A stretch of 64,000 bases of DNA. It comes from Longimicrobiales bacterium. GTDB lineage: Bacteria > Gemmatimonadota > Gemmatimonadetes > Longimicrobiales > Gaopeijiaceae. The position numbers were made by a program, and so were the translations under genes. The notes beneath the pieces are model-generated. The model was not told where the DNA came from and did not search any database. It worked only from the letters and a program-made list of their open reading frames with translations. The stretch spans positions 2,304,001 to 2,368,000 of the forward strand of contig OZ241869.1 in NCBI GenBank assembly GCA_965202805.1, given 5' to 3'. Position 1 is the first letter of the stretch, and each line of letters begins with the position of its first letter. Below, piece by piece: positions 25,854 to 32,268 of the stretch.

Positions 25854-26093
25854 TCAGCTCCCGGCTACCTCCTTCGCCCGTGCGATCAGCGCCTCGGCGG
25901 AGTCGCACTCAATGACCGCATCGGCGACGGCCTCGATGCGGGCGGGGTCGGAAATGCCTTCGAGGATCGGGCGCAGCCGCGCCTCGGCGCCGATTCCAAA
26001 CCTGCGGCCGACCAAGCGGTGCACCAGCCGCCGCTGTCCCTGGTCCACCTTCCCCTCTATCCACTGGTCAATGCGGTCGAGCATCGTCGTCAT
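25854..26093 (-). CDS. Putative intragenic small protein (RpnS-like, 79 aa), in frame within the rpn gene
   Basis: AAGGGAGAGAAC-ATG at 26093, at the start of the variable C-terminal domain. Confidence 0.55.
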   Translation of the reverse strand: MTTMLDRIDQWIEGKVDQGQRRLVHRLVGRRFGIGAEARLRPILEGISDPARIEAVADAVIECDSAEALIARAKEVAGS

Positions 26094-26810
26094 GTTCTCT
26101 CCCTTCGGAGACCCGGTCCAGATTCTTATTGGCGGTCCGGTCAAGCCGAGCCGGCGCCGCACGTCCAGGTTGATCCAGGCCTCCAGACGCGCCGCAAGCT
26201 CGGGCTCTCCCGACTGGTCCGCCCACTGCCCGAGCGCCCGCACCGCCTCGCCGAGGTCGCCCTCGGAGCTCGCCCGCTCGAATCTCGCCAGCGCGGCGAT
26301 CATGTTGTCGGTCGACATCCCGACCGGATCGAGCCGCTGCAGATCCACCAGAAGATACCGATGGCTCGGAACCACGCCAACCAGCGGATCGGGGACCGGG
26401 CCCATAAGCCCCCGGATGTCGGTGGGTGCGGTCCAGGGCCGGGCGCCGTTGTAGACCACGACGGGTATCGTGAGCGGGTACTCGCCCCGTGGACCGAGCG
26501 CGTCGCTTCCGAGCGCGTTCATGATGCGCACCCAGTAGTCCACCATGCGTAGCGCCATGCGCCGGTCCACAGTGGACTGGAATTCGAGCAGCACGAACAG
26601 ATAGACCCAGCCCTTCCCGGCGGCGTGGACGCGCCAGAGCATGTCGGCGTGGCGCTGGTCCAGGTGCTCGGTGACGAAGCTGGCGGGCAGCCGCTCCAGC
26701 GTGGCGAGGTCGAGATGGCGCGTGGCGCCCCGGACGAGCGCCCGCAGCGTGTCGGCCACCGCGCGCTTCTCGGCGAAGAAGCTCTTGTAGGCGGCGTCGT
26801 GTTTCGGCGC
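25854..26810 (-). CDS. Rpn/YhgA-like recombination-promoting nuclease (Transposase_31 family); no canonical start upstream of the conserved N-terminus, first GTG at 26759
   Basis: In-frame KHDAAYKSFF upstream of the track start; LERLPASFV, ADMLWRV, LLEFQSTVD, MALRM, PVVVYNG-x3-W. Confidence 0.85.
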   Translation of the reverse strand, partial: APKHDAAYKSFFAEKRAVADTLRALVRGATRHLDLATLERLPASFVTEHLDQRHADMLWRVHAAGKGWVYLFVLLEFQSTVDRRMALRMVDYWVRIMNALGSDALGPRGEYPLTIPVVVYNGARPWTAPTDIRGLMGPVPDPLVGVVPSHRYLLVDLQRLDPVGMSTDNMIAALARFERASSEGDLGEAVRALGQWADQSGEPELAARLEAWINLDVRRRLGLTGPPIRIWTGSPKGENMTTMLDRIDQWIEGKVDQGQRRLVHRLVGRRFGIGAEARLRPILEGISDPARIEAVADAVIECDSAEALIARAKEVAGS

Positions 26811-26878
26811 CTCCCACCGGCGCGGTCGCGGTGAGGGGGTGGATGACCTGACGGCCCCCGCGCGGGCTCTCCGCTACC

Positions 26879-27277
26879 TCATCCTCCCCGGGCCATCCCC
26901 ACCTGAACGATCCGGGGCTGATCCACCCCCGCGACCCCCACATACCGGAAGACCGCCGCGTCGAGTTCACGGGACCGGGGCTGCTGAACGACGACCGACT
27001 CGGTGCCCAGCAGGAGCGACGCGAACGGCGCCGCCTGGCTGTCAGCCCCGGGTTCGTCCGGAAACGTGAACTCCAGGTCGCCGCTCCCGAACACGATCCG
27101 TCCGTGCTCGTCGGTGACCCAGATCTCCGAGATCCCCGAATCGCGCGCGACCTGCGCGAGCGCGCCGTCGATCTCCTTCTTTCCCATCCCTGATCGGAGC
27201 GCGGCGTCAAGGTAGCGGGCCGCGAGCATTGCAGCGGCCACCATCGCCTTCTCCTGATCACTGCGGCCTTCAGCCAT
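26879..27277 (-). CDS. Stand-alone PDC/Cache-like sensor domain protein (132 aa)
   Basis: GGAG before ATG 27277; ISEIWVTDEHGRIV...FRYVGVAGVDQPRIVQVG resembles PDC sensor modules; no transmembrane or output domain. Confidence 0.6.
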   Translation of the reverse strand: MAEGRSDQEKAMVAAAMLAARYLDAALRSGMGKKEIDGALAQVARDSGISEIWVTDEHGRIVFGSGDLEFTFPDEPGADSQAAPFASLLLGTESVVVQQPRSRELDAAVFRYVGVAGVDQPRIVQVGMARGG

Positions 27278-27387
27278 GGATCGATCTCCAGTAGTCGGTG
27301 GTGTGAGGGGAGCAAATGAGCATCCGCTGAAGTGCGTACGCCAACTTTGCATTGTCGAACGCCAGCTCTTGCACTGCAACCCTTCAA

Positions 27388-27404
27388 GATATCTATTGTA
27401 TATC
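27388..27404. promoter_or_regulatory. Probable mazEF autoregulatory operator
   Basis: AT-rich inverted repeat GATAT-CTATTGT-ATATC just upstream of the GAGGAGG RBS of mazE. Confidence 0.55.
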
Positions 27405-27425
27405 CCTTTCGCAGAGGAGGACACC

Positions 27426-27665
27426 ATGGGTTCCCGCTCACACATCGCCAGGTGGGGGAGCAGCCTGGCCATCCGCATTCCCAAGCCGGTCGCAGAGCAA
27501 TGGGGCGTCCGCGAGGGTTCGAGGATCGAAATGGTGCCCCGGGGCGATCAGCTCGTGATGAGCAAGAGAGCCTATGATCTGACCGACTTGCTGGCCCGGA
27601 TGTCGCCGGAGACACTCCACGGCGAGATCGACACCGGACCCGCGCAGGGTAGAGAGGAGTGGTAG
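27426..27665 (+). CDS. mazE: AbrB/MazE antitoxin
   Basis: GAGGAGG RBS; RWGSSLAIRIPK, YDLTDLLA, HGEIDTGPAQGREEW. Confidence 0.92.
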   Translation: MGSRSHIARWGSSLAIRIPKPVAEQWGVREGSRIEMVPRGDQLVMSKRAYDLTDLLARMSPETLHGEIDTGPAQGREEW

Positions 27666-28006
27666 AGGGTCCAAACCCGCCGGACACCGGGCACATCGTC
27701 TGGATGGCCTTCACGCCCCAGGCTGGTCACGAGCAGGCCGGGCGCCGTCCCGCGCTGGTGCTCAGCCCCGAGGAGTACAACAGCAGGAGTGGCCTGGCGC
27801 TTTTCTGTCCGATTACATCCAGCCGGAAGGGCTATCCGTTCGAAGTGGTGCTGCCGGCGACGGGCAGGGTCACCGGCGTAGTCCTGGCCGACCAGATCAA
27901 GAGCCTGGACTGGCGGGCCAGACGAGCTCGATTCGCGTGCAAGGCCCCATCAACGGCCGTCAGCGAAGTCCTGGCCAAGGTCTCGGTGCTTCTGGGCCAC
28001 CCGTAA
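27659..28006 (+). CDS. mazF: MazF/PemK endoribonuclease toxin
   Basis: FTPQAGHEQAGRRPALVLSP, CPITS-x2-KGYPFEV, LADQIKSLDWRAR; overlaps the mazE stop. Confidence 0.95.
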   Translation: MVEGPNPPDTGHIVWMAFTPQAGHEQAGRRPALVLSPEEYNSRSGLALFCPITSSRKGYPFEVVLPATGRVTGVVLADQIKSLDWRARRARFACKAPSTAVSEVLAKVSVLLGHP

Positions 28007-30237: not shown

Positions 30238-31293
30238 CTACTCCCGGCCGCGCCGGCGCCGGAGCGACTCCCGCCGCTGGCGATAGCTCGCGTATGCCCG
30301 GGGATGGTCCTCGTTGGCGCGCGTGGGCTCGGAGAAGGCGGTCAGGTGCACGGCGGTCTCCCGATGGACGAGGGCCCCTGCGATCGCGCCCCTCGCCACG
30401 ACCCCCACGTCATGCCCCAGCGCGACGGCCGGGTGGACATCGAACGCCCCCTCCCGCAGACGGTCGACGAAGGCGCGCGCGTGCTTCCGCCGGGGCGCCC
30501 GGTCGCGGGCGGTCGGCCGCTCCATCGCGTCGATCGCGTAGCTGCGCACCAGCTTGGGAAGGAAGGCCGCGAAGGTCTCGTGCCTGTCGAAGAGATCCAT
30601 GCCGAACTGCCGGGCGCCGGTAACGAAGATGGCGCCGATCTGACCGTCAATCAGGGACAGCTTCTCGACGTAGTCGTCCAGCGTGGCCCCGTGGCGCTCG
30701 TAGATCGCGCTCATCGCCTGGGTCGGGGAGTGCACCTCCATGCGGGCGGCCTTCTCGCTCAGGGCATCCCAGACCGCGCCCTGGTCGGAGCGCCGGGTCC
30801 CCGTGGTGCGGATCGATGCCTGCACGCTGTGGAGTCGGGCCGCGCGCCCGCGGCTGTTCTGCACTCGCTCGGTCACGTCGAAGTCGGGCTGGCTGTAGCC
30901 CCAGCGCCCGGCCTCCACGCACGACACCGGGATGGTCGTGGTGCGCTCGGCCGGAACCAGCAGGGTGAGGTTGGCGATCCGGTTCTGCTTGGCGCCCACC
31001 AGCTCCTCGCCATCGACGATGAGCACGTCGGCATCGGACCGGTTCTTGACCAGGAGATTGGGCACGCTGCCCCCCTTGTCCACTTCCCGGACCGACACCA
31101 GCCCGGTGCGCAGGCCCTCCTCAAGGAGCAGGTAGCGGACGGAACTCACCAGATCCGACGTCAGCGGGAAGACGGTCAGGCCGGCGAAGTGCGCGGGCGC
31201 TCCGATCGAGAGGCTGGAGAGCGCGGTCCTGGCGCTGTCGATGGGGGTTTCGGTGGTGTGGGCGTCGGATTCGGCAGGGGGCGGATGGCGCAT
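30238..31293 (-). CDS. ARPP-1 / DUF6569 family protein
   Basis: AAGGAG before ATG 31293; LTVFPL, GSVPNL, DGEELVGAKQNR, IPVSCVEAGRW, DQGAVW, KLVRSYAIDA. Confidence 0.8.
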   Translation of the reverse strand: MRHPPPAESDAHTTETPIDSARTALSSLSIGAPAHFAGLTVFPLTSDLVSSVRYLLLEEGLRTGLVSVREVDKGGSVPNLLVKNRSDADVLIVDGEELVGAKQNRIANLTLLVPAERTTTIPVSCVEAGRWGYSQPDFDVTERVQNSRGRAARLHSVQASIRTTGTRRSDQGAVWDALSEKAARMEVHSPTQAMSAIYERHGATLDDYVEKLSLIDGQIGAIFVTGARQFGMDLFDRHETFAAFLPKLVRSYAIDAMERPTARDRAPRRKHARAFVDRLREGAFDVHPAVALGHDVGVVARGAIAGALVHRETAVHLTAFSEPTRANEDHPRAYASYRQRRESLRRRRGRE

Positions 31294-31310
31294 GATCGTC
31301 TCTCCTTTTA

Positions 31311-31400
31311 TGTTGTCAGTAATCACCAGTTGATATCAGTATAAGAGACCAGCTGGCGCATGTCAACAGTAGTCATCAGCTAATAGCAGTAAACGACAGC
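31311..31400. repeat. Helically phased 10-bp direct-repeat array (7 in-phase copies)
   Basis: CAG[T/C] starting at 31317, 31327, 31337, 31367, 31377, 31387 and 31397 in an AT-rich intergenic region. Confidence 0.85.
31338..31366 (-). promoter_or_regulatory. Near-consensus sigma70 promoter for the ARPP-1 gene
   Basis: Minus strand TTGACA (31366-31361), 17-nt spacer, TATACT (31343-31338). Confidence 0.85.
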
Positions 31401-31443
31401 ACAAGGCGGAAACCAGGGACGCCACCGGCCTGAGAGGCAGAGA

Positions 31444-32268
31444 ATGGGCAGCTACACCACGAACGAGCTGGAGCGCGACACCGGCTTCGGGCGGAGGACC
31501 ATCGCCTACTACGTACAGGAGGGCCTGCTGCCCCGGGTCGGCCGGCGCGGGCCGCGCACCCGCTATCCCGAACTGGTGCGGGATCGCCTGCTCTTCATGC
31601 GGCGCGTACGCGAGGCGGAGGCCGAGAGCGAGATCCGGCCCGTTTCCCTGAGCAGCCTGCGCGAGCTGTTCCAGGCCCTGCCCCGCGGGCTGGTCGCAAG
31701 CGTCGCCGCCGGGGAAACCCCGATCACCCCCGACATCGTTTCGCTCTCATCCGTCGAGCAACGTTCCATGGTAGACCGCGTGGCCGCGCTCAGGGCACGG
31801 CTCCTGGACGCGCGGCCCGGGCCGGCCGCCAAGTCCCCGATTGCCCGCGTCTACGAGGGCGAGAGGCTGGAACTCCGGGCGCCAGCGCTCCCGGACTGGG
31901 CGGGCGAGGAATCTGACGCGTACCCGGCAGCCCCGCAGGCACCGCGATTCGGGTTGGAGGACGATGCCGTGGACGAGGCCGTGCGCCGGCCCCGGAGCGC
32001 CGAGACAGCGGGCGAGGACGCCGATACCCTCGCGCATCAACTGTCCTGGGTGCTGAATGAGCTTCGCTCTCCCGCCCGCCGCGAACGCGCCGCGGACGCA
32101 GTCGACACCTGGTCGCAGGTCGAGGTCACCTCCGACATCCGGCTCTCGGTCCGGGGAATGGCGGACGAGGACGCGTTCCTTCTGCGCGTCGCCGGGCGCC
32201 TGCTGCGGCAGGTGCTCGAGAGCCACAGCCCGTTGGAGGAACGAAGCTCGGACGAGCTTGAGGAGTAG
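31444..32268 (+). CDS. MerR-like HTH DNA-binding protein with uncharacterised C-terminus
   Basis: YTTNELERDTGFGRRTIAYYVQEGLLP...TRYPE N-terminal wHTH; C-terminal WSQVEVTSDIRLSVR; no Cys metal-sensing motif. Confidence 0.8.
   Translation: MGSYTTNELERDTGFGRRTIAYYVQEGLLPRVGRRGPRTRYPELVRDRLLFMRRVREAEAESEIRPVSLSSLRELFQALPRGLVASVAAGETPITPDIVSLSSVEQRSMVDRVAALRARLLDARPGPAAKSPIARVYEGERLELRAPALPDWAGEESDAYPAAPQAPRFGLEDDAVDEAVRRPRSAETAGEDADTLAHQLSWVLNELRSPARRERAADAVDTWSQVEVTSDIRLSVRGMADEDAFLLRVAGRLLRQVLESHSPLEERSSDELEE

Follow-up and report, generated by a model that had tools for sequence, protein, structure and literature searches.

A phased direct-repeat array over back-to-back promoters as the likely dual operator of a new MerR-like repressor family

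An array of phased 10-base repeats lies between an ARPP-1 gene and a divergently oriented MerR-like gene (merR) in a Longimicrobiales genome, and this array, which appears to cover two back-to-back promoters, is likely the dual operator of a new family of MerR-like repressors. As judged by sequence comparison, such repeats accompany the MerR-like gene in at least three bacterial phyla. A further 24 arrays, absent from the initial annotation of the region, are dispersed over the same genome, and we consider it probable that the divergent protein represses both genes from the home array and, in this genus, also binds about 24 dispersed arrays, which would give the likely repressor a second, chromosome-wide job. 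The window referred to below is the whole stretch of 64,000 nucleotides that was analysed, and the coordinates of its relevant features are collected in Table 1.

Table 1. Features of the merR/ARPP-1 region, in window coordinates
Feature	Position	Strand	Description
ARPP-1	30238..31293	-	351 aa from ATG at 31293; PF20208 E 1.5e-92; single copy in genome
AAGGAG, RBS-like hexamer	31302..31307	-	8 nt before ARPP-1 ATG; direct reading
Block A	31311..31340	+	three phased units; takes in the predicted start of ARPP-1 transcription, the 5' leader and some of the -10 bases
ARPP-1 promoter -10 TATACT	31338..31343	-	predicted; overlaps last 3 bases of unit 3
Block B	31361..31400	+	four phased units, including units 4 and 5
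ARPP-1 promoter -35 TTGACA	31361..31366	-	predicted; within unit 4
MerR-like gene	31444..32268	+	274 aa; MerR_1 PF13411 E 5.8e-5 over residues 4-57; single copy

The home array was found as the initial annotation had described it, in the units quoted there. Its seven CAG trinucleotides (31317, 31327, 31337, 31367, 31377, 31387 and 31397) share an identical phase modulo 10; in 5000 dinucleotide shuffles no 3-mer reached seven in-phase copies at any period from 8 to 13 (shuffle maximum 6), and no second place in the whole window reaches seven. By direct reading, all seven units fit the pattern Y-R-N-CAG-Y. An eighth CAG[T/C] copy at 31350 is off-phase, and the seventh unit is mostly CAC in close homologues. 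The proposed minus-strand promoter, TTGACA-17-TATACT, was likewise recovered: it matches the consensus at 11 of 12 positions, its two hexamers overlap units 4 and 3, and its start site is predicted near 31331. The flanking genes were also correctly named as ARPP-1 and a MerR-like gene whose product has no Cys. In distant homologues, unit 5 (31373-31378) reads TTGACA and is predicted to serve as the -35 of a merR promoter that gives leaderless messages; in the window, no merR promoter close to the consensus was found. The sole Rfam match in the region, a fluoride riboswitch below threshold (E 0.14), was taken as chance, and the DNA contigs matched to it were strain variants only.

The initial annotation had held that a conserved 10-11-bp periodicity in other merR/ARPP-1 pairs would support its reading, and such a periodicity was found. 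A divergent merR is present at 22 of 59 ARPP-1 loci from genomes, while a merR alignment yielded 80 metagenome loci, with a divergent ARPP-1 in 51, none in 18 and too short a sequence in 11. Within the phylum, the search gave a strong match (E below 1e-50) for 36 of 301 genomes and a weak match for 6; of the 30 loci retrieved, 28 have a divergent ARPP-1, and the other two look like errors in start placement. We counted phased pairs, defined as YRnCA[G/C] units 10 or 11 bp apart, with the pattern taken from the window units and close homologues. Of 37 dereplicated merR+ARPP-1 loci, 33 have such pairs (the other 4 have none), as against 0 of 32 ARPP-1 loci without this merR, and 28 of 32 still have them once the five closest relatives are removed; the loci are related, so these counts are not independent trials. 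Over the 37 loci there are 78 pairs against a shuffled mean of 1.6 (maximum 5 in 200 shuffles) and a single pair on the other strand. A motif-free periodicity test points the same way, with p≤0.05 at 24 of 37 loci with merR versus 5 of 32 without it. The pairs are kept in 8 of 12 merR loci that lack an intact ARPP-1 and in 6 of 7 truncated regions. Among array-less ARPP-1 loci, other regulators were seen (six XRE-type, three WYL and one distant MerR among 73 neighbours scanned). The named loci include Gemmatimonadota, Gammaproteobacteria and Ca. Sulfomarinibacter, the closest named relatives being Gemmatimonadota (Longimicrobiales) assemblies with ARPP-1 identities of up to 91%.

A weight matrix built from 36 regions gave W-N-T-Y-R-A-C-A-G-T-W, that is, a unit of about WNTYRACAGT, with adjacent units spaced by 10 bp in 53 cases and by 11 bp in 21. 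Matrix sites number 178 forward and 13 reverse and show no recurrent inverted spacing, and a palindromic site was rejected on these grounds. When the ARPP-1 promoter was anchored on unit 4, its spacer measured 16-18 bp in 29 of 31 loci, the other two being mis-anchored, which argues against activation of the classical MerR type; in one locus (L006), a 3-bp insertion is accompanied by a new -10 that restores a 17-bp spacer. Measured from unit 4, the block A units of homologues fall at -28 to -33, -38 to -43 and -48 to -53, and the two blocks are 28-33 bp apart. Because the -10 shares bases with unit 3 and the -35 with unit 4, this register is set by the promoter and provides no evidence for one continuous filament across the gap. 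On the merR side, a promoter with at least 8 of 12 matches and with unit 5 as its -35 was found in 22 of 40 anchored loci, a consensus promoter being absent from the window and 17 other loci; these promoters often lie 6-9 bases from the ATG or GTG, suggesting leaderless messages. Taken together, the merR-linked periodicity, the 16-18 bp spacer and the merR-side -35 in the next unit would make repression of both genes, as supposed in the initial annotation, the natural reading of the sequences.

The same annotation had pictured the protein as a polymer along one DNA face; the phased repeats are conserved in the homologues, but the register across the gap does not demonstrate continuity. This BldC/Xis-type arrangement, in which the winged-helix domains alone would polymerise head-to-tail over nine positions, bridging two empty ones and bending the DNA, we hold to be possible rather than probable. 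The strict one-strand polarity of the pairs (78 versus 1) would fit such a filament, as would the units that fill the promoter spacer in some homologues (at -11 in 5 of 29 and at -18 to -20 in 6 of 29), and the BldC paper describes two to four repeats one turn apart (PMC5859096, in part). However, the block distance varies and is tied to promoter spacing, 11-12 bp steps and skipped units occur, one clade has an inverted unit at the merR end (direct reading), and the protein is longer than a lone winged-helix domain by about 200 residues, which include a conserved C-terminal domain.

The model of the MerR-like protein comprises a confident winged HTH (residues ~1-60) with helices up to residue 122, a low-confidence linker (126-188) that is predicted to be disordered, and a conserved C-terminal domain (189-261, modelled as 81 residues) formed by a helix, a beta-hairpin and a helix. 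The family profile gathered 296 representatives at E≤1e-10. All 136 members scanned contain PF13411, placing them among the MerR-type winged HTH proteins, and none of the 136 has a Pfam match to an effector family or a B12-binding domain. The recognition helix and wing are 94-99% invariant across 264 proteins (R18, T19, Y22, Y23, G33-G36, R40 and Y41), in agreement with a single conserved DNA motif; 190 of the 264 have no Cys, and no Cys column is conserved. The fold matches are MerR-type domains at middling Z, with PbrR, SoxR, GlnR and CvkR at Z 7-8 (CvkR 7xn2: Z 8.0, rmsd 2.5 over 81), CbpM 3ucs at Z 8.3 (rmsd 3.9 over 96) and the RacA chain 5i41 at Z 6.1; BldC and CarH chains are absent among the fold matches listed, an absence that carries no weight, and Foldseek returned no match at E≤0.001 for the whole model. 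For the C-terminal domain no specific fold emerged (best Z 6.8, to helical hairpins), with Atlas leads only, all below 0.9, and the prediction of a complex of two full-length copies had too low a confidence to count either way. The domain also occurs in two distant MerR proteins adjoining ARPP-1 (L029 and L035), with other helices and no array. In the first of these (L029:1747-4999), the genes merR, VWA and ARPP-1 follow one another in this order on one strand, the distant MerR gene leading, and are preceded by a TTGACA...TATACT promoter without an array.

CarH and CarA bind DNA through a MerR-type domain. In Myxococcus, Thermus and Bacillus megaterium they are repressors on three to five tandem direct repeats (nnnnTnnACAn) on one DNA face, and these 11-bp repeats overlap the -35 or -10, sometimes between divergent promoters (PMC9304148, in part). 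The operator described here resembles theirs as a tandem direct repeat with a TnnACA core over promoter hexamers, and the CarH precedent, together with the occurrence of its TnnACA core in 93 of 179 units, supports a MerR-type reader. The initial annotation knew of no description of a switch such as it supposed, but that paper reports MerR-type repressors whose tandem direct repeats cover a -35; for the merR/ARPP-1 module itself, no description was found among the titles and beginnings of abstracts listed. Unlike in CarH/CarA, the period here is 10 bp more often than 11, the 136 members have no cobalamin-binding domain and end instead in the helix/hairpin/helix, the partner is ARPP-1 instead of carotenoid genes, and there are dispersed arrays away from promoters.

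BldC from Streptomyces, in turn, has 68 aa, consists of the domain only, and has 367 targets, with a degenerate site that the authors were unable to predict (PMC5859096 and PMC6428758, in part). The present family shares with it a MerR-like winged helix, a variable number of direct repeats one turn apart and many chromosomal sites, whereas it differs from this stand-alone wHTH of ~70 aa in its 274 aa with a conserved C-terminal domain and in its sharp, predictable motif and fixed partner gene. RacA from Bacillus subtilis, which occupies 25 chromosomal regions, combines a MerR-like N-domain, a divergent disordered linker and an oligomerising C-domain (PMC4914108, in part), a build that the MerR-like protein shares; its ram sites, however, are GC-rich palindromes clustered near the origin, unlike the direct repeats described here, for which neither origin clustering nor strand polarity is seen. 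In its build, then, the protein is closer to CarH/CarA or RacA than to the 68-aa BldC. With CvkR, a leaderless MerR-type repressor divergent from its target (PMC9938897, in part), it has the winged-helix fold and the divergent target in common. Both CvkR and classical MerR proteins differ from it in binding palindromes as symmetric dimers. Classical MerR activators act on promoter spacers of 19-20 bp and use Cys ligands; here there is neither such a spacer with a palindrome nor any Cys ligand. The module is unlike CarH/CarA and BldC in their defining domains, though it would work like them.

The ARPP-1 of the window retains the conserved Gln (in KQNR) and Cys (in VSCVE) of its family, present in 98% and 99%, respectively, of 92 alignment rows. 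Iyer et al. (2022; PMC9503650, in part) described the ARPP domain with these conserved residues, proposed that it acts on ribose moieties, and found it in the context of ARG systems, HIRAN, WYL and a deacetylase. As in their neighbourhoods, the domain is here linked to a one-component regulator, but in contrast to the ARG-centred conflict systems we found no ADP-ribosylglycohydrolase or phosphatase genes among the scanned window neighbours or among 86 neighbours of merR loci; the only ARG found lies beside a merR-less ARPP-1 (L054). The string "merr" occurs twice in the main text of that paper, including in an author name, and does not occur in the examined part of its supplement, elsewhere in which a mention of the module is possible. 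The neighbours of the module offer no clue to its signal. Some 3-5 kb away (window 25854-28006) lie a gene of the Rpn/YhgA-like type (Transposase_31) and a gene for a PemK-like toxin, the latter directly preceded by a probable antitoxin gene. The function of ARPP-1 rests on a computational proposal, PMC9503650 being the sole paper found on the domain; a dedicated regulator, a sharp operator and a near-consensus promoter would make that function testable, for instance through a reporter screen for the inducing stress.

In the mechanism that we propose, the MerR-like protein would line one face of the DNA, each 10-11 bp unit taking up a single winged-helix domain, and thereby repress both ARPP-1 and merR. 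Occupancy of block A would block the ARPP-1 -10 and start site, and occupancy of block B the two back-to-back -35 hexamers. The C-terminal domain, tethered by the flexible linker, may be the main source of cooperativity, in the manner of CarH/CarA, with BldC-like head-to-tail contacts also possible, and some signal would relieve repression and lead to strong ARPP-1 expression. With such a module, the small set of MerR-type proteins that recognise phased direct repeats would gain a new family.

Scanning the 4.02-Mb genome with the matrix revealed 21 arrays of at least three units, the home array included (off-phase steps gave 0, 1 and 0), and site pairs genome-wide peak at 10 and 20-22 bp; admitting steps of 10-12 bp adds four arrays, for a total of 25, namely the home array and 24 dispersed ones of 3-5 units each. 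All 25 lie outside genes as called by a codon model, some touching gene ends, although spacers make up 13% of the genome. Their neighbours are functionally unrelated (61 proteins scanned) and include thiS/thiG, acetyl-CoA synthetase, CTP synthase, a TRAP transporter, chlorite-dismutase/HemD, an ECF sigma factor, DnaE and amidohydrolases. The majority of the dispersed arrays have no consensus promoter. The spacers that hold arrays are co-directional in 18 cases, divergent in 4 and convergent in 3, much as expected by chance from the genome (66/21/13%); 8 of 24 arrays lie within 45 bp of a start codon versus 10.9 expected, and 15 of 24 are close to stop codons versus 11.0 expected, which reaches the 95th percentile only. 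With origin and terminus placed by GC skew, neither clustering (17 of 25 arrays in the terminus half, p 0.11) nor replication-strand polarity was significant. Promoter-type spacers are not enriched for the dispersed arrays, and for this reason we take the arrays to be sites that work independently of promoters; no other step of the argument is as weak. Roadblock, architectural and decoy sites are their candidate roles, and in the genus the MerR-like protein would likely occupy about 24 such arrays as roadblocks inside or after operons or as architectural sites. It is tempting to go further and suppose that a local ARPP-1 repressor was co-opted genus-wide, its operator being rebuilt at ~25 spacers irrespective of where promoters lie and bound there by cooperative patches of protein, which would serve as switchable transcription roadblocks or nucleoid organisers that are released by the ARPP-1-inducing signal, but this extension we regard as rather doubtful.

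The dispersed arrays follow the genus. For at least 18 of the 24, a strict two-unit pattern finds an array in the corresponding position of one or more of the genomes G123, G252, G163, G140 and G198 (one G123 array accounting for two of the 18), with flanks that are 80-96% identical and units whose wording has changed. The expansion is seen in 15 of 19 genus genomes, with 15-31 motif pairs each against 0-3 for a reversed-pattern control, the array-poor ones being G140 (5 pairs), G198 (3), G061 (1) and G142 (0). Both merR and ARPP-1 are present in 18 of the 19 and both are missing from G142; this co-loss of merR, ARPP-1 and arrays concerns one genome, 96% complete, with kin that are not independent. 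Of five spacers compared, none that could be located in G142, G061, G198 or G273 holds an array, and in G140 two of the five hold arrays with different wording. In a four-fragment tree, G061 pairs with G142 (support 87) and G140 with G198 (99); the backbone is weak (44, 63), so that gain and loss of the dispersed arrays are not told apart. Outside the genus, no genome of the 301 exceeds 11 pattern matches, merR carriers of other genera are nearly limited to the home array, and the six genomes from which the gammaproteobacterial and Sulfomarinibacter loci come have 1-3 matches. The expansion is therefore lineage-specific. Since G061, G140, G198 and other genera bear merR without it, merR is not sufficient, and another factor may be involved in the dispersed arrays. 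An operator with a single target in other lineages recurs in one genus at some two dozen conserved and apparently promoter-independent positions, and may offer a snapshot of a local repressor site becoming chromosome-wide.

That a different genus-wide regulator of the OmpR/PhoB or ArcA type binds the dispersed, and possibly the home, arrays as an ordinary regulon with non-consensus promoters seems to us improbable. ArcA sites do have extra direct repeats (PMC3798270, in part), many genomes with merR lack dispersed arrays, 13 of the 18 arrays with co-directional neighbours have the sense orientation (p 0.10), and several are found 25-45 bp ahead of a start codon. Yet the home array tracks merR across phyla and is the sole array in other genera, and neither the spacer classes nor the distances to start codons given above depart from the genome in the direction of promoters; moreover, no HTH_17 (BldC-like) protein is common to the genus.

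Far less credible is that the arrays are att-like recombination or insertion sites, with the MerR-like protein as an Xis-type factor, or scars of mobile elements. Two low-GC islands are bounded by arrays (G000 C1 372422-395741 and 1838799-1844150), the arrays at 1838799 and 1844120 sharing 77 bp at 88% and those at 372422 and 395701 sharing 43 bp at 86%, and a few arrays occur at places that are empty in G000 (L219, L263). Synteny breaks at array spacers (3/14, 5/17 and 3/15), however, are not above those at other spacers (35/139; 40/148, plus 23 unmapped), and this control led us to reject the idea of an insertion hotspot; in addition, the array flanks have no common element, and no relatives were found in viral contigs or plasmids. 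As for the content of the islands, one holds a DNA methylase and a likely restriction gene and the other an FkbH cluster. Least tenable of all, the repeats as a by-product of overlapping sigma-70 hexamers with no repressor bound would explain why units 4 and 5 coincide with -35 hexamers, why unit 3 coincides with a -10 and why the unit resembles TTGACA, but not why units 1-2 keep their phase downstream of the predicted start site, why ARPP-1 promoters without merR have no such units, or why most dispersed arrays have no consensus promoter.

Several minor observations concern individual loci. A merR with its array and only a 5' remnant of ARPP-1 was seen among L081, L083, L086, L090, L098, L102 and L111; L084 and L088 were grouped with these, and L084 has lost most of ARPP-1 along with part of the array, in a way that resembles recombination between units, or assembly collapse. 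A clade without ARPP-1 (L112, L116, L121, L122, L125 and L126) has an array upstream of merR whose last unit is inverted (TTGACTGTCAA), and L112, L120 and L121 carry, further upstream, a gene resembling XRE/S24 repressors. The 11 pattern matches of G284, which has no such merR, were rejected as an expansion, being mostly another repeat: a ~55-bp element with TGACAG...CTGTCA arms recurs every 400-800 bp on two contigs (L266, L270, L273, L275, L276 and L278-L281) in the manner of a cassette array and is unrelated to the operator. A separate family of dispersed repeats of 45-70 bp lies beside one array (G000 C1 near 757700, L176) and in at least 15 other places. Finally, in the spacer after a DUF4159 gene of G140 (L317), a diverged array is followed by five tandem units of ~20 bp.
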